Positions 3 through 11,765 of a DNA stretch of 16,801 nt are shown one piece after another (positions within the stretch are counted from its first letter, which is position 1; every line of letters starts with the position of its first letter). The stretch covers positions 1 through 16,801 of the forward strand of contig JACPCX010000132.1 in NCBI GenBank assembly GCA_016184305.1, in the 5' to 3' direction. Both the position numbers and the translations under genes were made by a program. The notes below the pieces were generated by a model. It was not told the origin of the DNA and did not search any database. It worked only from the letters and a program-made list of their open reading frames with translations. This DNA is from Candidatus Rokuibacteriota bacterium (GTDB lineage Bacteria; Methylomirabilota; Methylomirabilia; Rokubacteriales; CSP1-6).

Positions 3-516
3 GTGAGCCGGGTGGACGACAACTTGGTGGTGACGCTCCTGGGCACGGGGGACCAGGCGACGGTGCCGTACTGGTTCAATGACTGGCATCCCGCGTACCG
101 GGAGCTGGCCCGGGTGGAGTTCGCGGCCGACGGGACGGTGTGGGACGTGGACACGCTGCGGGCGATGGTGCTGCAGGGGACGGCGGGGGACGACACGCTG
201 ATCGGGTACGGGGAGACGGGGGATGTGATCAGCGGGCTGGGGGGCAATGACTATCTGGCCGGCGGCGCCGGCGACGACACGCTGGAGGGCGGCGCCGGGG
301 CAGACACGCTGCAGGGGGACAGCGGCAATGACAGCCTCCTGGGCGGGGCGGACGCGGACACGCTCTACGGGGGCGAGGGCGACGACACGCTGGACGGGGG
401 CCGGGGCGACGACATCATGGACGGGGGGTTCGGGAACGACACGTATCTCTTCGGCCGGGGGAGCGGGCAGGACACGGTCAACGACTATGACTGGCAGGTG
501 GTGGACACGGACCGGA
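3..516 (+). CDS. RTX / hemolysin-type Ca-binding repeat protein, upstream segment (enters from outside the window; frame breaks at ~516)
   Basis: Frame 3 encodes GGxGxDxLx nonapeptides ([45 protein letters not shown]) and the motif [14 protein letters not shown]. The frame stops at 557 after a junction at ~516. Confidence 0.85.
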
Positions 517-625
517 GGCACGGGGGACCAGGCGACGGTGCCGTACTGGTTCAATGACTGGCATCCCGCGTACCAGGAGCTGGCCCGGGTGGAGTTCGCG
601 GCCGACGGGACGGTGTGGGACGTGG
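42..625 (+). repeat. 109-bp direct repeat (42-150 and 517-625), one mismatch
   Basis: ggcacgggggaccaggcgacggtgccgtactggttcaat...gtgtgggacgtgg occurs twice; the only difference is G100 vs A575. The offset is 475 nt, not a multiple of 3. Confidence 0.95.
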
Positions 626-1923
626 CGGCGCTCAAGCAGCGCGTCCTCCAGGGCACTACGGGAGCCGACACGCTCATTGGCTACGAGAGCGCCGACACGC
701 TCATCGGGCTCGGGGGGGCGGACAGCCTCTACGGGAACGGTGGCGATGACCGCCTCGACGGGGGCGCCGGGGCCGATGCCATGTGGGGCGGCACGGGCAA
801 TGACACGTACCTGGTGGATGACGTCAACGACCGTGTCACCGAGTCAGGCGGCCAGGGGACGGACACCGTGCTGTCCGGCGTCAGCTTCGCGCTGCCGGCG
901 AACGTCGAGAACCTCACCCTCACGGGGACTGGGGCCATCAACGCCACCGGGAACGAGGCGGCCAACACCCTCAGAGGCAACGCGGCGGCCAATGTCCTCG
1001 ACGGCGGGCCGGGCGCCGACATCATGACGGGCGGCGCCGGCAACGACACCTATGTCGTGGATGACGCCGGCGACCGCATCACCGAACTGTCGGGGCAGGG
1101 CATCGACACGGTCCTGAGCTCGATCGGCTACACGCTGGGCGCCAACCTGGAGAACCTCACGCTCACGGGGACCGCCGCCATCAATGCCGCGGGCAACACC
1201 CTGAAGAACACCCTCGTCGGCAATGGCGCCAGCAATGTGCTCAGCGGGGGCGCGGGCGCCGACACCATGGCGGGCGGCGCCGGCAACGACACCTACGTCG
1301 TGGACAATGCGGGCGACGTGGTGACGGAGGCCGCGGGCGAGGGCACCGACACCGTGCAGGCCTCGCTGAGCTACACCCTCGGTGCCAGCGTCGAGAACCT
1401 CATGCTCACGGGCAGCAAGGCGATCAATGGTACGGGCAACGCGCTCGGCAACACGCTCACGGGCAACACTGCCGCCAACGTGCTGGCGGGAGGCGCTGGC
1501 AACGACGTGCTGAGCGGCGGGCGCGGCAACGACACCTATCGCTTCGACCGGGGCATGGGCGCAGACCGCATCGTCGAGAACGACGCGACCTCGGGCAACA
1601 CGGACACGGCGCTCTTCGGCAGCGGCATCCGCCCGCTGGACGTGATCCTGACCAGGAGCGTGAACAGCCTCGTGGTCGCGCTCCAGGCCTCGACGGACGC
1701 GGTCACCGTGCAGGACTGGTATCGCGGCCGGGCCTACCAGGTCGAGGTCATCCAGGCCGGCGACGGCAGCCGGCTCCTCGCCGCCCAGGTGGACTCGCTC
1801 ATCCAGGCCATGGCCGCCTTCAGCCAGAGCACGGGACTCAGCTGGAGCCAGGCCGCGGCGGAGCGTCCGGACGATGTGGCGGCCGTCCTCGCGGCCCATT
1901 GGCAGCCGGCGCAGGTTGGCTGA
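517..1923 (+). CDS. RTX / hemolysin-type Ca-binding repeat protein, C-terminal segment with putative T1SS secretion signal
   Basis: Frame 1 from 517 ([12 protein letters not shown]...) has many GGxGxD repeats, ENLTLTG units and a C-terminal [12 protein letters not shown]...LAAHW tail typical of T1SS-secreted RTX proteins. It lies directly upstream of HlyB/HlyD-type genes. The ORF-track start at 247 is out-of-frame sequence. Confidence 0.9.
772..1500 (+). repeat. Three tandem 243-nt (81-aa) intragenic RTX repeat units
   Basis: Units start at 772, 1015 and 1258, each ADxMxGGxGNDTYxVDxxxDxxTE..GxGxDTV.S...xL.AxxENLxLTG..AIN..GN. Confidence 0.9.
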
Positions 1924-4078
1924 GCCGCAGGGCCTCGACACCGGGCTCGCGTGCCTGCTCGCGCTGGCCCGCTTTCTGGGTGTCGCCGCCGACAGCGAGG
2001 AGCTGCGCCACCGCTTCGGCCGGTCCGGCGAACCCCTCTCGCAGACGGCGCTGGTGCGGGCCGCCCGGCACCTGGGGCTCCGCTGCCGTCCGGTGCGGCG
2101 CCGCTGGCCGAGGCTGGCAGCGGCGCCGCTTCCCGCCATGGCGCTTTGCCAGGGCAGCCGCTGGGTGATCGTGGCGCGAGCCGACCGGGAGCAGGCGCTC
2201 GTCCAGGAGCCGGGCGCGCCCGCCGTGGCCGTCTGGCCGCGCGAGCGCTTCGAGGCCGGGTGGACGGGCACGCTCCTCCTCTGCGCCCGCCACCGCGCTC
2301 CCGGCGGTGCCGGCGATCGGCCGTTCGGATTCCGGTGGTTCCTCCCCTTCGTCGTCAAGTACCGGCGCCAGCTTGCCCAGGTGCTCGCGGCCTCGATGCT
2401 GCTCCAGGTGCTGGGGCTCATGACGCCGCTCTTCACCCAGGTCGTCATCGACAAGGTCCTGGTCCACCGGGGACTCGCGACGCTCGACGTGCTGGCCGCA
2501 GGGATGCTCGGGCTCCTGGTCTTCGAGGCGCTCCTCGGGGGCCTGCGCGCCTATCTCTTCTCCCACACGGCGGCGCGCATCGACGTGGAGCTGGGCGCCC
2601 GGCTCGTGCGCCATCTCCTCGCACTCCCGCTGGCGTACTTCGAGGCGCGCCGGGTCGGGGACTCGGTGGCGCGCGTGCGTGAGCTCGAGAGCCTGCGGCA
2701 CTTCCTCACGGGCTCGCCGATCACGGCGCTGGTGGACGCCCTGTTCACGGGGATCTTCGTCGCCGTGCTCTTCCTCTACAGCGTTCCGCTGGCGCTGGTG
2801 GCGCTGGGCGCGCTGCCGGGCTACGCGCTCCTGTCTCTCGCCGTCACGCCACTCCTCCGCCAGCGCCTCGACGAGAAGTTCCGGCGGGGCGCCGATAGCC
2901 AGGCCTTTCTGGTCGAGTGCGTTCGCGGCGTGGAGACGGTGAAGGCCATGGCGGTGGAGCCGCAGATGGAGCGGCGCTGGGAGGAGCACCTGGCGGGCTA
3001 CGCGCGCGCCGGCTTTCGCGCGGCGCAGACGGGGCAGGTGGCGGGGCAGGTGGCCTCGCTGCTGAGCAAGCTGACGGCGCTCGTCATCCTCTGGTGGGGC
3101 ACGCGCCTGGTGATGGAGGGCGCCCTCACGGTGGGCGAGCTCATCGCCTTCAACATGCTGGCCGGGCGCGTGAGCGGACCCGTGCTGCGCCTGGTCCAGC
3201 TCTGGCAGGAGTTCCAGCAGGCCGCCATCTCCGTGGCGCGCCTTGGGGACGTGCTCGACACGCCCGGCGAGGTCCCGCGCGCCTCGGCCCGGAGCCGGCC
3301 GCCGGCCGTGGCCGGACGCATCGCCTTCGAGGAGGTCTCCTTCCGCTATCGCGCGGGCGGCCCCGACGTCCTGCGCGGTGTCTCGCTCTCGGCGGCCCCG
3401 GGGGAAGTGATCGGCATCGTCGGGCCGTCAGGCTCGGGCAAGAGCACCCTCGCCAAGCTCCTCCAGCGCCTGTATGTGCCCGTGTCGGGCCGCGTCCTGC
3501 TGGACGGGATGGATCTGGCGCAGCTGGATCCGGTGTGGCTCAGGCGCCGCGTCGCCGTGGTGCCCCAGGAGACGGTGCTCTTCAACGGCTCGGTGCGCGA
3601 CAACATCGCGCTGGGCGATCCCGGCTTGCCGATGGAGCCGGTGATGGCGGCGGCGCGGCTGGCCGGCGCCCACGACTTCATCGTCGATCTTCCCGAGGGC
3701 TATGACACGGCGGTGGGGGATCACGGCTGCGCGCTCTCCGGCGGGCAGCGCCAGCGCATTGCCATCGCCCGCGCGCTGTGTGCCGATCCCTCCGTGCTCA
3801 TCTTCGACGAGGCGACGAGCGCCCTCGATCACGAGGCCGAGCGCGTCATCCGGGGCCATCTGCCGCAGATCTGCCGGGGGCGCACCGTCCTCATCATCGC
3901 TCACCGCCTGACCATGGTGGAGCGCGTGGATCGCGTCCTGGTCATCGACGGCGGGCGCGTGGCGGAGGAGGGGGCGCCGAGTGCGCTCGGCGGGGCGGGG
4001 GGATTCTTCGCGCGTCTCTGCGCCGATCAAGGCGCCGGGCGGCGTGTGGGCGCCGCGCCCCCGGCGAGCGGGCCGTGA
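1916..4078 (+). CDS. hlyB: Type I secretion system ABC transporter (HlyB family) with N-terminal C39-like domain
   Basis: N-terminal DTGLACLL (C39-like; Thr at the catalytic Cys position of DCGLACL), [10 protein letters not shown] region, Walker [10 protein letters not shown], signature LSGGQRQR, Walker B LIFDE, H-loop IAHR. A TTG start at 1916 overlapping the RTX stop is inferred; the ORF track starts at 1874. Confidence 0.93.
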
Positions 4079-5403
4079 GCCGCGCCCGGCTGCGTGGGCG
4101 GCGGGAGGACCGCGAGTTCCTGCCGGCGCTCCTCGAGATCCAGGACTCACCGCCCTCGCCGCTCGCTATGGCGCTCGGCCTGATCATCCTCGCGCTTGTC
4201 GCCGCGGTGGCGGCCTGGGCCACCCTCGGCTCGCTCGACGTGGTGGCCGTGGCGCCCGGCAGGGTCATCGCCGCCGGCCACTCCAAGCTGATCCAGCCGC
4301 TCGAGGCCGGTGTGATCCGGGCGATCCGCGTCGGTGACGGCGCCGCGGTGCGCAAGGGGCAGGTGCTCGTCGAGCTCGATCCCACGGTGAGCAGTGCCGA
4401 CGAGACGCGGCTGGCCAGCGAGGAGGCAGCCGCCCGCGTCCACATCGCGCGCCTGCGCGCCCTCCTCGCGGGGCAGCCGTCCTTCGACGGGCCCCCGGGG
4501 GCCGCGGCCGGGCTCGTCGCGCTCCAGCGCCAGCTCCTGGCCGATCAGCGCCAGGAGCAGGAGCGCCGGCTCGAGGCGGCTGCGCTTGGCATCAGCCAGC
4601 GTGTGTCCGCGGTCGAGGGCGCACGGGCCAACGTCGAGCGCCTGGAGATCCTTGTCGCGATGCAGACCGAGCGCGCCCAGGCCTACCGGACGCTCTTCGA
4701 GCGCGAGTACGTGGCGCGCATGCAGTACCTCGAGGTCGAGGAGCGGCGCGTAGACCGGGTGCAGGATCTCGCCATGGAGCGCCAGCGGCTGGACCGCGAG
4801 CGGGCGGCGCTCGCCGAGGCGGAGAAGCAGTTCGAGGTGCTCGAGTCCGAGTTCAAGCGGGCGCGGCTCGGCGAGCTCACCGAGTGGGAGAGCCGCGCCG
4901 CGGCGGTCTCGCAGGATGTCGTCAAGGCGGCCCGGCGCCGCGCCGTGCAGCGGCTCGTCTCCCCCGTGGACGGCGTCGTCCAGCAGCTCGCCGTGCACAC
5001 GGTGGGGGGCGTCGTGACGCCGGGGCAGCAGCTCATGGTCGTGGTGCCGCGGGACGCGTCGCTGGAGGTCGAGGCCTGGGTGGAGAACAAGGATGTGGGC
5101 TTCGTGCGTCCCGGGCAGCCCGTCGAGGTCAAGGTGGAGACCTTTCCCTTCACGCGTTACGGGACGGTGGCGGGGCGCGTCACGAGCCTGTCGGGCGATG
5201 CCATCTCGGTCGAGCGGCTCGGGCTCGTCTACGCGGCGCGGGTGAGCCTCGACCGGAGCGTGGTCCGCGTGGAGGAGCGCGACGTGGCCCTCGCCCCGGG
5301 GATGGCCGTCGCGGTGGAGATCATGATCGGCAGGCGGCGCGCGCTCGACTTCTTCCTGAGCCCGCTCATGCGTCGGTCCCACGAGTCCCTACGCGAGCGA
5401 TAG
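4075..5403 (+). CDS. hlyD: Type I secretion membrane fusion protein (HlyD family)
   Basis: EFLPALLEIQDSPPSP N-terminus, one TM helix, KLIQPLEAGVI, coiled coil, SPVDGVVQQLAVHTVGGVV, VKVETFPFTRYG, PGMAVAVEI, C-terminal ESLRER. GTG start at 4075 overlaps the hlyB TGA (GTGA). Confidence 0.93.
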   Translation: MSRARLRGRREDREFLPALLEIQDSPPSPLAMALGLIILALVAAVAAWATLGSLDVVAVAPGRVIAAGHSKLIQPLEAGVIRAIRVGDGAAVRKGQVLVELDPTVSSADETRLASEEAAARVHIARLRALLAGQPSFDGPPGAAAGLVALQRQLLADQRQEQERRLEAAALGISQRVSAVEGARANVERLEILVAMQTERAQAYRTLFEREYVARMQYLEVEERRVDRVQDLAMERQRLDRERAALAEAEKQFEVLESEFKRARLGELTEWESRAAAVSQDVVKAARRRAVQRLVSPVDGVVQQLAVHTVGGVVTPGQQLMVVVPRDASLEVEAWVENKDVGFVRPGQPVEVKVETFPFTRYGTVAGRVTSLSGDAISVERLGLVYAARVSLDRSVVRVEERDVALAPGMAVAVEIMIGRRRALDFFLSPLMRRSHESLRER

Positions 5404-5500: not shown

Positions 5501-5800
5501 CTAGCCCGCCCCTCGCCCCGGCCCGCGCGGGTCCCGCCCGCGCCGCCGCAGCTCCCGATGGATCCGCAGGTCGACGAGCCGCATCACGAAGGCCACCACG
5601 GCCGCGGCCAGGGCGAGGCTGAGCAGGGCGCCGATCGTGAGCGTGTCGGCCAAAGTGCTCACGCCCCGAATCCCGAGGTAGGTGGTGAGAACGGCCGACA
5701 GGAGGATGACGGCCAGCATCCCTCCCCGATAGAGCCAGCGCTCCACCAGGAGCTGCTCCAGCGCGGCGTCGTCCTTGTCCAGCCACTCCGAATCTCTCAT
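5501..5800 (-). CDS. Small membrane protein (99 aa, two predicted TM helices), unknown function
   Basis: ATG at 5800 preceded by AGAGGGG. MRDSEWLDKDDAALEQLLVERWLYR is followed by two hydrophobic stretches and an Arg-rich C-terminus. Confidence 0.7.
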   Translation of the reverse strand: MRDSEWLDKDDAALEQLLVERWLYRGGMLAVILLSAVLTTYLGIRGVSTLADTLTIGALLSLALAAAVVAFVMRLVDLRIHRELRRRGRDPRGPGRGAG

Positions 5801-5900: not shown

Positions 5901-6302
5901 ATGGGTACTGTAGCCCCCGACCGGCCGCTCCGCGTTGAAGTCATCACCTACGTCCCGACCCACTATCAGCACTGACAGCACTGCGAGGTGACCTGGCAGG
6001 TCGCCGGGTTGGGTCAGAAGGTGCACCGGGAGCAGCTCGACGCCGGGCTCCCGGATGACCTCGCGGCTGAATTCCATTCCCTTTCCCAGTGGGCCCACGG
6101 GCTGCCTCACCGGTACGGGTCGCGCGTCACGGTTCGGCTCGTGGACGCGGCCTCCATCGAAGGCTTCTTCAAGTCCCTGGTCCGTCGCCTCCATCGGTAT
6201 CCCGCATTCATCGTCGAGGGCAGGAAGTACGTGGGCAACGACTTCGTCAAGGTGGACGCCCTGATCTCGGCGGGCCTGGCAGCCCAGCGGGTGGGTTCGT
6301 GA
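5901..6302 (+). CDS. Thioredoxin-fold protein with UxxC motif; probable selenoprotein (133 aa, Sec at codon 25, TGA 5973-5975)
   Basis: ATG 5901 with SD-like GAGGGG. Reads MGTVAPDRPLRVEVITYVPTHYQH-TGA-QHCEVTWQV, continuous in frame with ORF 5988..6302. Order of elements (beta strand, UxxC, helix, VTVRLVDA strand, YPAFIVEG cis-Pro-like segment) fits a thioredoxin-like fold. A SECIS-like hairpin follows the TGA. Confidence 0.8.
5987..6005 (+). promoter_or_regulatory. Putative bacterial SECIS element
   Basis: GGUGACCU-GGC-AGGUCGCC: 8-bp stem (one G-U pair) with a G-led apical loop. The stem starts exactly 11 nt after the UGA, as in the E. coli fdhF SECIS. Confidence 0.72.
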
Positions 6303-6403
6303 CCAGGGCCGGGATCTCCCAACGCCTGGAAAGGGGGCGATGCGTCTCGTCGTGGTGAGGATCGGGCAGTGACAGACTGCCTTACAGAAAAGGAGGAGGC
6401 AGA

Positions 6404-8197
6404 ATGAACACCCTGCTGGCCGTGATCATCGGGGCGGCAACCGTGTATCTGGCATACACGCTCTACGCCCGCCGGATCGACCGCAACGTGATCCAGTCGG
6501 ATCCCAAGCGGGCCACCCCGGCCACGCTGTACATGGACGGCGTGGATTTCATGCCGACCAACCGCAATATCCTCTTCGGCTACCACTTCAAGTCCATCGC
6601 CGCCGCCGGGCCCATCGTGGGCGCGATCGTGGCCGCGAGCCTGTGGGGGTGGCTCCCCTCCATCATCTGGCTGGTGCTGGGGGTCTCGTTCATCGGCTGG
6701 GCCAGCGACTACAGCGCCATCGTGATCTCGGTGCGGAACGAGGGCAACAGCCTCTCCGCGATCGCGCACAAGCTGGTCTCGTCCCGCACCCGGACCGTGC
6801 TGCTGCTCTTCATCTTCTTCTATCTCCTGCTGGTGACCGGCGCCTTCGTCAGCATCATGGCGCAGGTGATGGACTCCCAGCCGCGGACCCACTTCGGCAT
6901 CATCATGCTGGTCGTCATGGGGCTGCTGCTGGGCCAGATGCTCTATCGCTGGAAGACAGGGCTGGTGGCCGCCACGCTCCTCGCGGTCGGCGTCACCCTG
7001 CTGGCCATCCTGTCGGGTCCCTGGAGCGGGGCGGCCTTCCAAGGGCTCAACGCGTGGCTCAACGGGCTGACGGGTGGCGCGCCGCTGGTCACCTACTTCG
7101 ACCCGACGCTGGCCGGATTCAAGGGGGCCGAGGCGAAGATCATGCCGAGCCTCCTCTTCTGGGCCATCGCGATCTCCGTCTTCTGCTACGCCGGCTCGGT
7201 TCTCCCCATCTGGCGGATGGCTCAGCCGGTGGTCTACGTGGGCTTCTGGATCACCGCCCTGTCCATGGTGCTCGGCCTGGGCGGCGCCGCGGTGGCGAGC
7301 TTCGTCAAGCCGGAGGTCGCCCAGTTCCAGATCCCGGCCTTCAAGGGCTTCAATCCCCAGCTGGGCCCGGCCGGGATCATGCCGCTTTGGCCCATGCTCT
7401 TCGTGACCATCGCCTGCGGCGCGATCTCGGGCTGGCACGCCCTGTTCGGGGCGGTGGGCACGGCCCGGCAGATCGAGAATGAGGCCGACATGCTGCCGGT
7501 GGGCGGCGGCTCCATGTTCACCGAGTTCCTCCTCGGGCTGCTGGCCCTCCTGGCCGTCTCGGTCGGGGCCAAGGGGGCGCCCGTGGCCGCCTTCGCCAAC
7601 GGGCTCGGCGGCTTCATCAGCGTCTGGGGCGTCCCAATCCAGTACGCCGTGTCCCTCGCCTTCGCGGCCTTCATCGTGATCGTGCTCGTGGTGACCCAGC
7701 TCATCTTCCGGGTCATGCGCATCACCCTCACCGAATGGCTGGGCGAGGTCATCCCGCCCTGCCGCAACCAGCACGTGTCCTCGCTCGTCTGCGTCCTGCT
7801 GGCCCTTCTGCTGGTGGTGACCGGGACCTGGGTCTATCTCTGGCAGCTCTTCGGCGGGGCCAACCAGCTCATGGCCGCCCTGGCGCTCCTGCTGGTGACG
7901 GTGTGGCTGGCCTCCGTGGGCAAGAACTGGCTCTACGCGGGGCTGCCGATGATCTTCATGTACGTCACCACGGTGGCCTCGCTCCTGGTCACCGCCTACA
8001 ACGTCTACTTCAACGTCTACCAGCCCAACCGGGAGGCCGGCCGCATGCTGCCCATGGTCGGCTCGGGGCTCATGGTCCTGGTGGCGCTGCTGCTCGTGGT
8101 CGCGGCGGTATTCATCGGGATTGACGGCTGGCGCGCTTTCGTGAAGTACCTGCGGCGGCCGACGCCCGCCCCGAAGCCGGCGCCTGCCCGGGGTTAA
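6404..8197 (+). CDS. cstA: Carbon starvation CstA-family membrane transporter
   Basis: 597 aa, highly hydrophobic. Motifs TPA...DGVDFMP, FGYHFKSIAAAGPIVG, WGWLP, LFVTIACGAISGWH and WQLFGGANQLMA match the CstA family. Strong SD AGGAGGAGG. Confidence 0.92.
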   Translation: MNTLLAVIIGAATVYLAYTLYARRIDRNVIQSDPKRATPATLYMDGVDFMPTNRNILFGYHFKSIAAAGPIVGAIVAASLWGWLPSIIWLVLGVSFIGWASDYSAIVISVRNEGNSLSAIAHKLVSSRTRTVLLLFIFFYLLLVTGAFVSIMAQVMDSQPRTHFGIIMLVVMGLLLGQMLYRWKTGLVAATLLAVGVTLLAILSGPWSGAAFQGLNAWLNGLTGGAPLVTYFDPTLAGFKGAEAKIMPSLLFWAIAISVFCYAGSVLPIWRMAQPVVYVGFWITALSMVLGLGGAAVASFVKPEVAQFQIPAFKGFNPQLGPAGIMPLWPMLFVTIACGAISGWHALFGAVGTARQIENEADMLPVGGGSMFTEFLLGLLALLAVSVGAKGAPVAAFANGLGGFISVWGVPIQYAVSLAFAAFIVIVLVVTQLIFRVMRITLTEWLGEVIPPCRNQHVSSLVCVLLALLLVVTGTWVYLWQLFGGANQLMAALALLLVTVWLASVGKNWLYAGLPMIFMYVTTVASLLVTAYNVYFNVYQPNREAGRMLPMVGSGLMVLVALLLVVAAVFIGIDGWRAFVKYLRRPTPAPKPAPARG

Positions 8198-8219
8198 GCG
8201 GCCCGGCCCGCCAAGCCGC

Positions 8220-8277
8220 AGCGCGGAGTGGGGAGCCGGGGAGGGACAACCTCCCCGGCGCCCGCCGGCGCCGCGCT
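8220..8277 (+). other. GC-rich intergenic stem-loop
   Basis: Perfect 10-bp stem GCCGGGGAGG (8235-8244) / CCTCCCCGGC (8250-8259), loop GACAA, enclosed by AGCGCGG (8220-8226) / CCGCGCT (8271-8277). No U-tract. Confidence 0.55.
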
Positions 8278-8291
8278 CGACACCAGCGTTC

Positions 8292-8588
8292 ATGCCGACT
8301 CGAGGACTCACGAACCGCCTGTCCAACGGCTGGGAGGCGGTCAGACAGTTCATGTACGGGCTGACGGGCCATGAGTTCGCCCGCCACGCCCTCGGGATGC
8401 GCCATGAGCTGGAGGCGGTGTTCATGGTGGTCACGCTGGGCGACCTGATCGGCGTGCCGATCCTGCCGCCCATCTACTCGCTGCGCCTGCTGCCCTATGT
8501 GGTGCCCGAGATCGCCACGTGGAAGCGCCACATGGCGAAGCGGAAGGAGTTCTGGGAGAAGGAAGAGTATGATATGCACGGCGTCTAA
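8292..8588 (+). CDS. Small CstA/ArsA-associated protein, paralog 1 (resembles 'CC-star' type proteins but lacks a terminal Cys-Cys)
   Basis: 98 aa; core TLGDLIGVPILPPIYSLRLLPYVVPEIATWKRHM shared with the next gene. Located between cstA and the ATPases. No clear SD, so the start is uncertain. Confidence 0.75.
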   Translation: MPTRGLTNRLSNGWEAVRQFMYGLTGHEFARHALGMRHELEAVFMVVTLGDLIGVPILPPIYSLRLLPYVVPEIATWKRHMAKRKEFWEKEEYDMHGV

Positions 8589-8608
8589 TCGCGGGCCGGG
8601 AGAGACCG

Positions 8609-8884
8609 ATGACTGACGAAAAGAAGCCGAAGAAGGGCGGGATCCTGAGCGTGTTCAAGGACATCGTGTACGGGATGTCCTCCCACGAGATGACCCGCCA
8701 CGCAGTCCGCTCCCGGGCGAGCATGGAACACCTGTTCATCCTCATCACAATGGGTGACCTCCTGGGGGTCCCGATCCTGCCGCCCTACTACTCGCTGAGA
8801 CTCCTGCCGTACGTGACGCCCCAGATCAGCTCCTGGAAACGCCGCATGCTCCGGGAGCGCGACATCACCGACGTCCTGGGGTAA
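8609..8884 (+). CDS. Small CstA/ArsA-associated protein, paralog 2
   Basis: 91 aa; core TMGDLLGVPILPPYYSLRLLPYVTPQISSWKRRM; SD-like GGGAGAG upstream. Confidence 0.8.
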   Translation: MTDEKKPKKGGILSVFKDIVYGMSSHEMTRHAVRSRASMEHLFILITMGDLLGVPILPPYYSLRLLPYVTPQISSWKRRMLRERDITDVLG

Positions 8885-8946
8885 AGACCGGCCCCGCCCG
8901 CCCCGGCCGCCAAGCCGCCGCGAGGCGGATTGCCCAAGGAGGGACC

Positions 8947-9933
8947 ATGTCGCTCAGGACGGTCTTCGAGAGTCAGCCGGACCGGCGGTACATCATGTTC
9001 GGCGGCAAGGGCGGGCTCGGGAAGACCACGCTCTCCGCCACGTGCGCCTTCTGGCTGGCCAGCCAGGGCAAGCGCGTCCTCCTCTTCTCCGTCGATCCGC
9101 AGGCCAGCCTCTCGGACATCTTCCAGAAGGACATCTTCGGCAAGGGCCCGGTGCCGATCATGCAGAACCTCTGGGCCCAGGAAGTGGACGCCGACCGGCG
9201 GATCAAGGACTACCAGGAGGAGATCCGCAAGAAGATCCTGGACATGTACGGCTTCGACCGCGTCCCCGAGGAGATCGACAACTACATCGCCGCCGCCTCC
9301 GCCGAGCCCGCCATGGAGGAGAGCGCCATCTTCGACGCCGTCGTGGACATCATCGTCCAGGGCGACTACGACTACTACATCTACGACCTGGTGCCGCTCG
9401 GTCACGCGCTGTACTACCTGTCCATGGCGAAGGTGTACGACGAGTGGATCAACAAGATCACCAAGCTCCGCGAGGAGATGCGCCAGTACGACCAGGTGGC
9501 GGCGACGATGCGCCGTGAGGAGACCATGGAGGAGGACAAGATCCTCGGCGAGCTCCTCTACATCAAGGAGCGGATCAACGCCTCCTCCCGCATCCTGACC
9601 GACAAGCACCGCACCGCCTTCTTCTTCGTGCTGGTGCCGGAGCAGATGATCATCCTCGACACGAAGAAGGCCGCGGAGCTGTTCGCCAAGTTCGAGGTGC
9701 CCCTCTCGGGCTACGTGGTGAACCGGGTGCTCCCGCCGGACCTGGGCGCGGGTCACATCCCCGAGTACCTGCGAAACCGGATCACGATGCAGCAGCGGTA
9801 CATGAAGGAGATCCAGTCCACCTTCGGTGCCCAGATCCTGGCCTACGTGCCGGAGATGGAGCGCGACATCACCGGGCTCCCGATGATCGAGCGCCTGGCC
9901 AAGCGGCTGTTCGAGGAGGAGCCGCAGACATGA
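8947..9933 (+). CDS. ArsA/GET3/TRC40-family ATPase, single domain, subunit 1
   Basis: Deviant Walker A GGKGGLGKTT; switch I SVDPQASLSD; switch II degenerate DLVPLGH; VVNRV. SD AAGGAGG. Confidence 0.93.
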   Translation: MSLRTVFESQPDRRYIMFGGKGGLGKTTLSATCAFWLASQGKRVLLFSVDPQASLSDIFQKDIFGKGPVPIMQNLWAQEVDADRRIKDYQEEIRKKILDMYGFDRVPEEIDNYIAAASAEPAMEESAIFDAVVDIIVQGDYDYYIYDLVPLGHALYYLSMAKVYDEWINKITKLREEMRQYDQVAATMRREETMEEDKILGELLYIKERINASSRILTDKHRTAFFFVLVPEQMIILDTKKAAELFAKFEVPLSGYVVNRVLPPDLGAGHIPEYLRNRITMQQRYMKEIQSTFGAQILAYVPEMERDITGLPMIERLAKRLFEEEPQT

Positions 9934-10919
9934 GCGCCGAAGGCGCCGTCACGACCTCGATGCGCGACTACCTCCGCGAGCATCCCTCGCTCAAGTTCCT
10001 CTTCTTCGGCGGCAAGGGCGGCGTGGGCAAGACCGCCCTGGCCGGGGCGACCGCCCTCTGGCTCGCCGGGCAGGGCCGGCGGACTCTGCTCGCCTCCACC
10101 AATCCCGTCCATAGCCTCTCGGGCCTCCTCGGGCAAGACGTTTCTGGCGGGCACACCGACATCACCGGCGTGCCCAATTTCTGGGCCTACGAGATCGACA
10201 CCCGGGAGACCATCGAGCGCTCCAAGAAGGACATCCGCGACAAGATCCAGTGGTTCCTCAAGTTCGCCGACATCTCGACCAAGGCCGACGACTTCGTCGA
10301 GTCGGCCACCATGAACCCCGCGTTCGAGGAGTCGGCCATGTTCGAGAACATGGTCGACATGATGCTCAAGAACGAATACGACACCTACGTGTTCGACACC
10401 GCGCCGACCGCCAATGCCCGGCGCCTGCTCGGGATGTCCAAGGTCTACTCCCTCTGGGTGGACAAGATGCTCAAGTCCCGGGAGGAGGCGCGCACGCTCC
10501 GCGAGATGCTCTCCTTCACCAAGAAGAAGGAGGACGATCCGCTCCTGCGGTACCTCCTCCAGTTCCGCACCCGCATGGGGCAGGCGCGCCTGCTCCTGAC
10601 CGACGCCCAGCAGACCGCCTTCTTCTTCGTGACGCTGCCCGAGGCCCTCCCCATCGCCGTCATCACCCGCTTCATCGGCTGGTTCCACGATTTCGGCATC
10701 CCGGTGGGCGGTGTGATCGTGAACATGCTGCTGGACCGGCAGGCGCTCGGGAAGGACGTCCCTGAGTTCGTCCTGAACCGCATGCAGATGCAGGACGAAC
10801 ACATGAAAACCGTCTGGGAGAAGTTCGACGGCCAGGTGCGCGCCATCTTGCCGCTGTTCGATCAGGAGGTGCGCGGCGTGCCAATGCTCCGCCAGGCCGC
10901 CGACGCGCTCTTCCGGTAG
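9930..10919 (+). CDS. ArsA/GET3/TRC40-family ATPase, single domain, subunit 2
   Basis: GGKGGVGKTA; switch I STNPVHSLS; switch II DTAPTAN; VIVNM. ATGA overlap with the upstream ATPase. Confidence 0.93.
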   Translation: MSAEGAVTTSMRDYLREHPSLKFLFFGGKGGVGKTALAGATALWLAGQGRRTLLASTNPVHSLSGLLGQDVSGGHTDITGVPNFWAYEIDTRETIERSKKDIRDKIQWFLKFADISTKADDFVESATMNPAFEESAMFENMVDMMLKNEYDTYVFDTAPTANARRLLGMSKVYSLWVDKMLKSREEARTLREMLSFTKKKEDDPLLRYLLQFRTRMGQARLLLTDAQQTAFFFVTLPEALPIAVITRFIGWFHDFGIPVGGVIVNMLLDRQALGKDVPEFVLNRMQMQDEHMKTVWEKFDGQVRAILPLFDQEVRGVPMLRQAADALFR

Positions 10920-10936: not shown

Positions 10937-11003
10937 GCGCGTGCTCGATTTCCTCCTGAACCCGCTGCCGCGCCGGACCCACGAGTCCCTCCGAGAGCGA
11001 TAG
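10937..11003 (+). repeat. Diverged copy of the hlyD 3' end (5337-5403), including the TAG stop
   Basis: 56/67 identical without gaps at offset 5600. Encodes RVLDFLLNPLPRRTHESLRER* versus RALDFFLSPLMRRSHESLRER* in hlyD. Confidence 0.9.
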
Positions 11004-11150: not shown

Positions 11151-11765
11151 CTACCGCGGCTGGGCGGCTCCCCGCTCGCGCGGCCGGCCGGTGGCCATGC
11201 GGTTGGCGATGTGACGGGCGTGGCGGGCGACCTCGCGGAGATAGTCGAGGATGGCGAGGTAGGCGCTGGAGGCCCGGGGCATGCAGACGCCCTCGATGAG
11301 GCGCTCCTCGTGGGCGCGGGCGAACTCCGAGGCGATGTCCTGGAAGCGCAGGCTCTCGATCTCCACGTGCCGTGCCAGCACCTGGTTGCCCGTGCGGGTC
11401 AGGTCGCGGGCGCACTCCACCATCTCGGCCGCCCGGTCGAACAGCTCGTTGACCTCGCGGATGCCACGGTCGGTGAACACCGTCCCCTCGGCGTCTATGG
11501 TGCGCACGCAGCGGATGACGCCCTCGATGGCGTCGCCCATGCGCTCGAGGTGGGCCGGCACGAAGCGGAGCGCCTCGGGCTCGGGCGGGGCGGCGAGCAG
11601 CTCCTGGGTGAGATCCTTCTCGCGCTTGTGGATGCTCCGGCCCAGCGCGGCGGCCGTCTCGAGCCCGGCGGCGTCGTGACGGTTGAAGCCCGCGCGGGCG
11701 AGCGCGAGCATCTCGATGACGTCCTGGAACATGGGAAGGAGCGCCTCGCCCGCGGATGTCGCCAT
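11151..11765 (-). CDS. Stand-alone PhoU-like domain protein (resembles the cytoplasmic C-terminal part of Na/Pi cotransporters)
   Basis: 204 aa, helical; HLERMGD, FTDRGIREV and HEERLIEGVC...ASSAYLAIL patterns. SD GGAGGAGG. Confidence 0.75.
   Translation of the reverse strand: MATSAGEALLPMFQDVIEMLALARAGFNRHDAAGLETAAALGRSIHKREKDLTQELLAAPPEPEALRFVPAHLERMGDAIEGVIRCVRTIDAEGTVFTDRGIREVNELFDRAAEMVECARDLTRTGNQVLARHVEIESLRFQDIASEFARAHEERLIEGVCMPRASSAYLAILDYLREVARHARHIANRMATGRPRERGAAQPR

Follow-up and report, generated by a model that had tools for sequence, protein, structure and literature searches.

Gene clusters in which cstA, the gene of a CstA-family carrier, lies together with cstX and arsA homologues have been described before. 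In the accessible part of Castillo & Saier (2010; PMC2963123) such clusters were reported in 26 cases, CstX was proposed to be the coupler, Pyrobaculum arsenaticum was found to have two CstX and two adjacent ArsA homologues, and the D/N alternation at the SXD motif was already noted. In the literature searched, which was mostly non-subscription, this was the sole paper on CstX or on CstA-ArsA, and no experimental test was found. Here a locus of this type is analyzed, which lies in a stretch of 16,801 nucleotides (nt) from a Candidatus Rokuibacteriota bacterium (contig JACPCX010000132.1; the whole stretch is called the window in the following). Six open reading frames (ORFs) on the + strand at 5901-10919 encode a thioredoxin-fold protein (Trx), a CstA-family carrier, two CstX paralogues and two ATPases. 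The favoured reading, to which a probability of about 0.4 is assigned, is that the block may be an ATP-assisted uptake system, in which an asymmetric ATPase would be docked to CstA via CstX and a selenocysteine-containing Trx (Sec-Trx) would act as thiol partner.

The clusters of Castillo & Saier (their ArsA clusters 14-18, especially 15) share, in the accessible text, cstA, a CstX of about 90 amino acids (aa) and ArsA homologues that have one domain and about 330 aa and lack the arsenic cysteines. The window has cstA within the block, CstX proteins of 98 and 91 aa and ATPases of 328 and 329 aa, and the locus belongs to this group, with the CstX proteins being equated by size and context, not by a comparison of sequences. 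A first-pass annotation of the DNA had suggested that an expanded, Sec-containing form of the CstA-ArsA linkage may be new. This was true only in part. The 1:2:2 core of cstA, cstX and ATPase genes has been known since 2010, as has the idea of CstX as coupler. In contrast, the accessible part of that paper has thioredoxins in ars operons only, and its cstA clusters appear there without a Trx or selenoprotein, a fusion, a reading of one active and one dead ATPase, or a two-helix gene; CstY, an optional member of those clusters, was not found in the lineage of the window. New beyond the core of 2010 are the uncatalogued Sec/Cys Trx, its fusion to CstX1, an either-or pattern of Trx and a Cys-Cys tail, a fixed ATPase asymmetry and a seventh gene.

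The description of six co-oriented genes in a 1:1:2:2 layout, with gaps of 101 nt or less and one ATGA overlap, was confirmed by the coordinates. In gene order the gaps are 101, 94, 20, 62 and -4 nt, the last one being the ATGA overlap. A divergent gene at 5501-5800 (-) had been missed. The features are:

5901..6302, +: gene 1, thioredoxin-fold protein, 133 aa (translation through TGA)
5973..5975, +: in-frame TGA, residue 25, likely Sec (motif H-U-Q-H-C)
5987..6005, +: SECIS-like hairpin, 8-bp stem, GGC loop (predicted fold; SECIS, selenocysteine insertion sequence)
6404..8197, +: gene 2, CstA-family carrier, 597 aa (Pfam PF02554, 350.8 bits)
7415-7417, +: codon of CstA Cys338, in IACGAISGWH (aligned copies)
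8292..8588, +: gene 3, CstX1 (DUF7990 / cory-CC-star-like), 98 aa (NF041419, E 3.5e-6, below cut-off)
8609..8884, +: gene 4, CstX2 (DUF7990), 91 aa (PF25952, cluster score 0.97; NF041419, E 8.5e-9)
8947..9933, +: gene 5, ATPase 1, single-domain, Get3/ArsA-like, 328 aa (TIGR00345, 224.8 bits)
9930..10919, +: gene 6, ATPase 2, single-domain, Get3/ArsA-like, 329 aa (TIGR00345, 211.4 bits)
10101-10103, +: ATPase 2 Asn codon at the place of the catalytic Asp (motif STNPVH)
5501..5800, -: gene of a two-helix membrane protein, 99 aa, head-to-head with the Trx gene

Several further systems share parts of this layout. The cory-CC-star loci of Actinomycetota (NF041419) also combine cstA with a CstX homologue and an ArsA homologue, and their CstA has the same Cys motif. 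They differ in having a single CstX that ends in Cys-Cys, one canonical ATPase and no detectable Trx, whereas the CstX proteins of the window reach 26.9 and 35.3 bits against a cut-off of 80 bits and end in HGV and VLG. CstA-YbdD and BtsT-YjiX of E. coli and the KCU-star selenoprotein of Campylobacter/Helicobacter are, as far as the accessible sources go, further cases of a carrier with a small partner that has a Cys/Sec pair. The E. coli CstA is about 29% identical to the carrier of the window, has no ATPase alongside, and is proton-driven and pyruvate-specific according to the accessible part of PMC7730263. In the small proteins of the block no Pfam or NCBIfam match to DUF466 (YbdD/YjiX) was found, and YbdD matched neither CstX nor Trx. 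Judged from profile matches, CstX1 and CstX2 are instead CstX/DUF7990 proteins and distant relatives of cory-CC-star. The ArsA-ArsB(-ArsD) arsenite pump likewise joins a pair of SIMIBI ATPase domains to a secondary carrier and can, by analogy, serve as a working model. It differs from the window, in which the ATPases are encoded by two separate genes, are asymmetric and lack metalloid cysteines, the carrier is unrelated and uptake instead of efflux is presumed; the pump ATPase has two fused domains and three metalloid cysteines, while the ATPases of the window are single-domain. The closest solved sequences are those of Get3/TRC40, which are also single-domain, and both ATPases of the window score above the cut-off of TIGR00345 (GET3/ArsA/TRC40). 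However, Get3/TRC40 is a symmetric homodimer with Asp in both sites and a CxxC zinc clamp, whereas the window has no clamp, an Asn in ATPase 2, and a predicted heterodimer with one natural D57N-like site and a fixed genomic link to one carrier. By these features a canonical Get3, an arsenical ArsA pump, a cory-CC-star system and a YbdD identity were ruled out.

Conservation of the gene set and its membrane proteins

Neighbourhood and phylogenetic profiling bore out the expectation that the genes would be conserved together. In 46 of 47 Trx-anchored loci cstA adjoins the Trx gene, and the sole exception ends at a contig edge; the titles of these records name Rokubacteria, Deltaproteobacteria, Actinomycetota, Chloroflexota, Acidobacteriota and Proteobacteria. 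Among 127 fetched loci, 71 contain cstA, two cstX and both ATPase genes, and 61 of these also have Trx. The 127 loci were fetched with Trx or fusion queries, so that the Trx share is inflated, and most of the incomplete loci are truncated at a contig end. A less biased sample of 301 genomes from across the phylum Chloroflexota, searched with different E-value limits for the three proteins, yielded 28 genomes with CstX, 24 with Trx and 26 with the ATPases, and all Trx-positive and all ATPase-positive genomes fall within the 28 CstX-positive ones. In 61 relatives Trx and the two-helix gene are present in the same 10 genomes, and cstA was found in all 10 and additionally as one partial copy. Across several phyla the genes are kept together as a unit. 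The position of the Trx gene shifts between lineages but stays inside the block. In addition, Trx is fused to CstX1 in other lineages, in 30 protein clusters: 30 of 49 matches to a fusion query cover at least 93% of the query, and in six loci the fusion forms an open frame in the context cstA-[Trx-X1]-X2-A1-A2 (X1 and X2, CstX1 and CstX2; A1 and A2, the ATPases). Trx travels with the module, which points to a shared function.

The proteins of the block evolve at different rates, with mean identities over 44 complete loci, from local matches only, of 0.78 (X2), 0.75 (A1), 0.72 (A2), 0.55 (CstA), 0.55 (X1) and 0.41 (Trx). The Trx distances follow those of CstA best (rho 0.72, 44 loci). The layout is also variable. 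At two loci (L044, L046) Trx adjoins cstA, and neither cstX nor an ATPase gene lies in the 6-7 kb fetched downstream, which suggests a closer tie of Trx to CstA than to the ATPases. Three Chloroflexota loci (L147, L150, L153) have a third and even a fourth cstX copy downstream of ATPase 2, and at another one (L107, 600-5213) two cstA genes precede a single Trx-X1-X2-A1-A2 module. A deep-branching version of the module (L144, L145; 35-45% identity) has a divergent Trx, retains the Asp in A1 and the Asn in A2, and has one additional gene, of about 160 aa, behind ATPase 2. A search of plasmids yielded no CstX.

CstA has about 15 hydrophobic segments in a hydropathy analysis. The AlphaFold2 (AF2) model (predicted local distance difference test, pLDDT, 88.3; predicted template modelling score, pTM, 0.88) has a helix that is broken around residues 335-343, and its Foldseek matches were NRAMP, LeuT and APC carriers, so that a LeuT/APC fold is predicted; a solved CstA relative was not found by sequence. 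In the model Cys338 sits where the predicted helix breaks. This residue is present in 85 of 85 aligned CstA copies, in E. coli CstA and at 16 of 16 cory-CC-star loci, while one haloarchaeal CstA gave no match to the Cys338 motif. CstX1 and CstX2 are paralogous (50% identity over 72 aa), and each has one hydrophobic segment, with hydropathy peaks of 1.97 (X1) and 1.59 (X2). CstX1, the paralogue involved in the fusions, is the more variable one. CstX2 is the most conserved protein of the block and contains a Cys in none of 92 copies, read from the matched stretch to the stop codon. Its near-invariance would be more in keeping with a permanent partner of the ATPases than with a transient client.

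Eleven fetched loci contain the divergent two-helix gene, among them one with the title Deltaproteobacteria and two with the title Chloroflexi/Dehalococcoidia, and none of the 11 has cstY in the fetched stretch. Its protein had no Pfam match and a weak NCBIfam match to SLATT_1 (E 0.086). It is likely a seventh component, because it occurs in exactly the same 10 of the 61 genomes as Trx. Elsewhere, 43 of 71 complete loci encode a single-helix protein that resembles CstY. A search with a CstY profile, run without a positive control, detected no CstY in the 61 relatives, 10 of which have the module. A comparison of CstY with CCDC47, a component of the PAT complex (CCDC47/Asterix), gave a weak match to PF07946 for 1 of 44 copies (E 0.011) and no relevant PDB sequence match.

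The thioredoxin-fold protein and the thiol pattern

The product of gene 1 had been called a Sec-thioredoxin, and both parts of this name were supported. In the AF2 model (pLDDT 82.7) only low pLDDT was obtained for the active-site loop (residues 23-25), and the best structural matches were thioredoxins, with Z around 10 and a root mean square deviation of 2.1-3.2 over 82-94 residues. The features of the superfamily are present in the predicted fold, namely (C/U)xxC at the N-terminal end of helix 1 and, ahead of a later strand, a conserved Pro, and P101 is nearly invariant in the family alignment. The invariance of C25/C28 in this alignment was not used, because it is circular (the rows had been picked for CxxC). 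No Pfam or NCBIfam model matched the protein of the window, and 14 of 100 family members match Thioredoxin_3 weakly. Judged from the model, gene 1 encodes a thioredoxin-fold protein of a family without a curated model. The N-domain of SasA and KaiB were among its structural neighbours; ArsD was not among the top 50 structural matches, which excludes nothing. In the literature searched nothing was found on this selenoprotein, although the supplements of a bioRxiv selenoprotein preprint, which were not seen, might list the family.

Among the 120 best homologues listed, all 21 full-length ones have a Cys at the Sec position. The remaining 99 span just 66-78% of Trx, and both aligned ones begin right past the TGA, as would be expected if they had been called from after the UGA. 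In related genomes one in-frame TGA each was found in 11 of 11 matches, from 10 of 61 genomes including the window's own. Among the 47 genomic loci of the family, 9 have a TGA (all titled Rokubacteria) and 38 a Cys. All nine relatives with a TGA gene possess selB, which was above the cut-off in 52 of 61 genomes. The window's own assembly (88.8% complete) contains selD, itself with an in-frame TGA, but selA, selB and selC were not found in it. In five relatives that were checked selA (5/5) and selC (4/5) lie on the same contig as selB, so that the gap could be explained by one missing contig. Gene 1 very likely carries Sec at the TGA, because the TGA aligns with the Cys of homologues, is kept in all 11 matches and occurs in relatives that have selB. 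The simple notion that Sec follows the machinery was ruled out, as selB is present in four of five tested genomes that have the Cys form. The system can do without Sec: Cys is encoded at 38 of the 47 Trx-anchored loci, and at 10 of 71 complete loci there is no Trx.

Downstream of the TGA lies the SECIS-like hairpin, with a G-led loop that starts 19 nt after it and is kept in the TGA copies. In 15 TGA copies 84% of the cells were paired, compared to 24-52% in slid controls, without double-sided (compensatory) changes, and its stability was not above that of shuffled sequences (z = -0.65). The hairpin is consistent with a SECIS and, taken alone, is a weak indication. A comparison of its energy between TGA and Cys copies (-10.9 versus -9.3 kcal/mol, p 0.017) involved close kin and was not relied on. 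Tandem duplicates of the Sec-Trx gene (UKHC plus URRC, or two UKHC) were seen three times (L018, 9001-9863; L021, 9001-9845; G033, contig C188), with the TGA and the hairpin kept in both copies. The selD of the window's genome (contig C18, 28407-29345) has its TGA within a CAG-U motif, with a hairpin downstream.

The distribution of thiols across CstA systems offers a possible role for Trx. Among 301 Actinomycetota genomes 22 match NF041419. Sixteen simple loci were fetched, each with one ATPase that has the canonical motifs STDPAH/DTAP, and CstX ends in Cys-Cys in 11 of the 11 that could be read by profile (5 were not read). None of 19 one-ATPase genomes yielded the Trx family, compared to 2 of 3 that have the doubled layout, for which no common X1 end is Cys-Cys. 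YbdD of E. coli, which ends in RCC, is needed for CstA-dependent pyruvate uptake according to the accessible part of PMC5847655, and a relative of the small partner that ends in Cys-Sec is described for Campylobacter in the accessible part of a preprint (bioRxiv 10.1101/2022.07.06.499078). Trx likely supplies the dithiol that the Cys-Cys tail supplies in simpler CstA systems, because the one-ATPase versions have the tail and no Trx, and Cys338 is invariant in CstA. This either-or pattern offers a possible reason for the need of E. coli CstA for YbdD. That a missing Trx would be replaced by a Cys close to the CstX1 end was considered and rejected: both are present at 16 loci, the Cys only at 2 and neither at 8.

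The ATPase pair, the proposed mechanism and its alternatives

ATPase 1 and ATPase 2 are 34% identical and differ in their catalytic motifs, which were counted in matches of more than 250 residues. ATPase 1 has GKGGLGKTT in 81 of 81 copies, SVDPQASL with the catalytic Asp in 81 of 81, and an altered switch II, DLVPLGH, in 79 of 81. ATPase 2 has STNPVH and DTAPTAN in 73 of 73 copies each, and its Asn, which replaces the catalytic Asp, aligns with the Asp of STDPAH in solved homologues; a clade at about 45% identity has retained this Asn. CxxC is absent from both (0/81 and 0/73), and the window's ATPase 1 has a single Cys and ATPase 2 none. For yeast Get3 D57N the accessible part of PMC12506534 reports that ATP is bound and not hydrolyzed, and ATPase 2 is predicted to bind ATP without hydrolyzing it. 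In a tree of 40 rows (every fifth row per alignment, four deep and eight single ATPases, with long branches flagged), A1 and A2 each formed one side of a well-supported branch (99/98 and 100/99), including the deep clade with the same asymmetry. The pair likely forms a heterodimer with one working site, because A1 and A2 are complementary, well-supported groups with a fixed asymmetry; the earlier proposal of a heterodimeric ATPase fits these two ancient paralogue clades. A complex prediction with ATPase 1, ATPase 2, CstX2 and two ATP gave scores of 0.33, 0.51 and 0.17, and a control with ATPase 2 replaced gave 0.38; it was not used for or against binding.

In the favoured reading, CstA would import a small organic nutrient, by family precedent a carboxylate or a peptide; a metabolic or regulatory neighbour hinting at the substrate did not recur around the 47 loci. 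The predicted heterodimer, of which one site would work and the other would trap ATP, would dock on CstA through CstX1/CstX2 and, when docked, drive the cycle of the carrier, akin to ArsA for ArsB. Sec-Trx would provide the equivalent of the Cys-Cys tail of YbdD and cory-CC-star, most likely by holding Cys338 of CstA reduced, and the two-helix protein would be an additional subunit in the membrane, taking the position of CstY in other lineages. The analysis shows the genes and their co-occurrence, the predicted folds, the fusions and the patterns of motifs, whereas the insertion of Sec (very likely), the heterodimer (likely), docking, energy coupling, the thiol target and the substrate are inferred. 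The patterns narrow the questions to the working one of the two ATPase sites, the binding partner of each small protein and the cysteine that is important. If the ATP drive were true, a LeuT-fold carrier would be powered by a Get3-like ATPase. A broader version, which is unlikely in our estimate, would make the block a new class of primary active importers, with a LeuT-fold carrier on a detachable, asymmetric Get3-like motor. By analogy, a conserved X2-A1-A2 module would be combined with a variable CstA-X1 unit in the manner of ECF transporters, and the CstA family would follow a general rule of a dithiol or selenolthiol partner acting on the invariant Cys, a role that would fall to the Cys-Cys tail in simple systems and, in this block, to a selenoprotein family so far unrecognised.

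Several points weigh against the ATP-assisted uptake system. E. coli CstA is proton-driven, so ATP is not a need of the family, and transport, ATPase or binding data for any member of the block were not found in the literature searched. Co-occurrence and fusion show a shared function, not energy coupling; moreover, a joint transfer of the block would yield the same pattern of linkage, and kin are not independent. Trx is dispensable, being absent from 10 of the 71 complete loci, 4 of the 28 CstX-positive Chloroflexota genomes gave no Trx match, and some Trx-CstX fusions have lost the CxxC. Of 70 complete loci, 8 have neither Trx nor a Cys near the CstX1 end. The genomes with a Cys-Cys tail are probably closely related, so that the either-or pattern may reflect one or two events, and Cys338, if buried in the membrane, may be out of reach of a soluble Trx. 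Lastly, the closest solved ATPases are of the Get3 type, the known job of which is the chaperoning of membrane helices.

This last point leads to an alternative that is improbable but has to be weighed, namely that the block is an assembly chaperone. The Get3-like pair, CstX and CstY or the two-helix protein would then fold or insert the 15-helix CstA or its small partners, and CstA would be an ordinary proton symporter. Among solved proteins, ATPase 2 indeed matches algal ArsA1 and archaeal/eukaryotic Get3 best (E 1e-53 to 1e-50), ahead of E. coli ArsA (1e-32), and CstX has a single hydrophobic segment (mean hydropathy 1.6-2.0). On the other side, the likeness of CstY to CCDC47 was weak, CstY was not detected in the relatives that have the module, E. 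coli CstA has no such gene alongside, and the near-invariance of X2 is unlike that of a transient client.

A second alternative, which is quite unlikely, holds that the ATPase pair is a regulator and not a motor. The pair would read ATP/ADP and Sec-Trx the redox state, and both would gate a proton-driven CstA, as the E. coli carrier is. A site that is predicted to be dead in all 73 copies of ATPase 2 suits a slow switch, and SasA and KaiB, the structural neighbours of Trx, are thioredoxin-fold partners of ATPases without a redox role. However, the catalytic Asp of ATPase 1 is kept in all 81 copies, and true ATP-driven pumps also have degenerate second sites, heterodimeric ABC exporters being an example.

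An arsenic or metal pump of the ArsA-ArsB-ArsD type with Sec-Trx as metallochaperone is very improbable: the ATPases belong to the ArsA family, the (C/U)xxC is flanked by conserved His and ArsD has a thioredoxin-like fold, but the three-Cys metalloid site is missing, the ATPases score far under the cut-offs of arsenical-pump models (97-143 versus 650-800 bits), Trx has only two thiol/selenol residues, and no ars cluster recurs around the 47 loci. The latter also applies to the clusters in the accessible part of Castillo & Saier (PMC2963123).

Transcript-derived contigs and flanking genes

A record with the title Candidatus Rokubacteria has counterparts of the block's proteins at 96-99% identity. 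Gene 3 has the least certain start of the block (8292), without a clear Shine-Dalgarno sequence. A scan for promoters and terminators returned 0 and 0 sites. None of the RNA runs contained half of the words of the stretch, the best share being 0.09. RNA-derived contigs from four libraries, mostly 85-95% alike, together cover all six genes, and a few of them bridge X1-X2, X2-A1 and A1-A2. They originate from relatives, so they are no proof of transcription or of a single transcript here.

Downstream, a stand-alone PhoU-domain gene (11151-11765, -) converges on the block; it is probably outside the module, because it was seen only in a near-identical locus (L017). At the left end of the window, ORFs with putative RTX/haemolysin-type Ca-binding repeats at 3-557 and 247-1923 are in different frames, possibly owing to a frameshift or a misassembly. 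The genes that follow them in the upstream region (3-5403) are presumably HlyB-like and HlyD-like genes of type I secretion, judging by motifs. Direct repeats of 67 nt with 84% identity flank the seven-gene block (5337-5403 and 10937-11003). The upstream repeat is the 3' end of the hlyD-like gene, its copy lies just past ATPase 2, and the same arrangement is present in L017; the repeats are possibly the scar of an insertion of the block.

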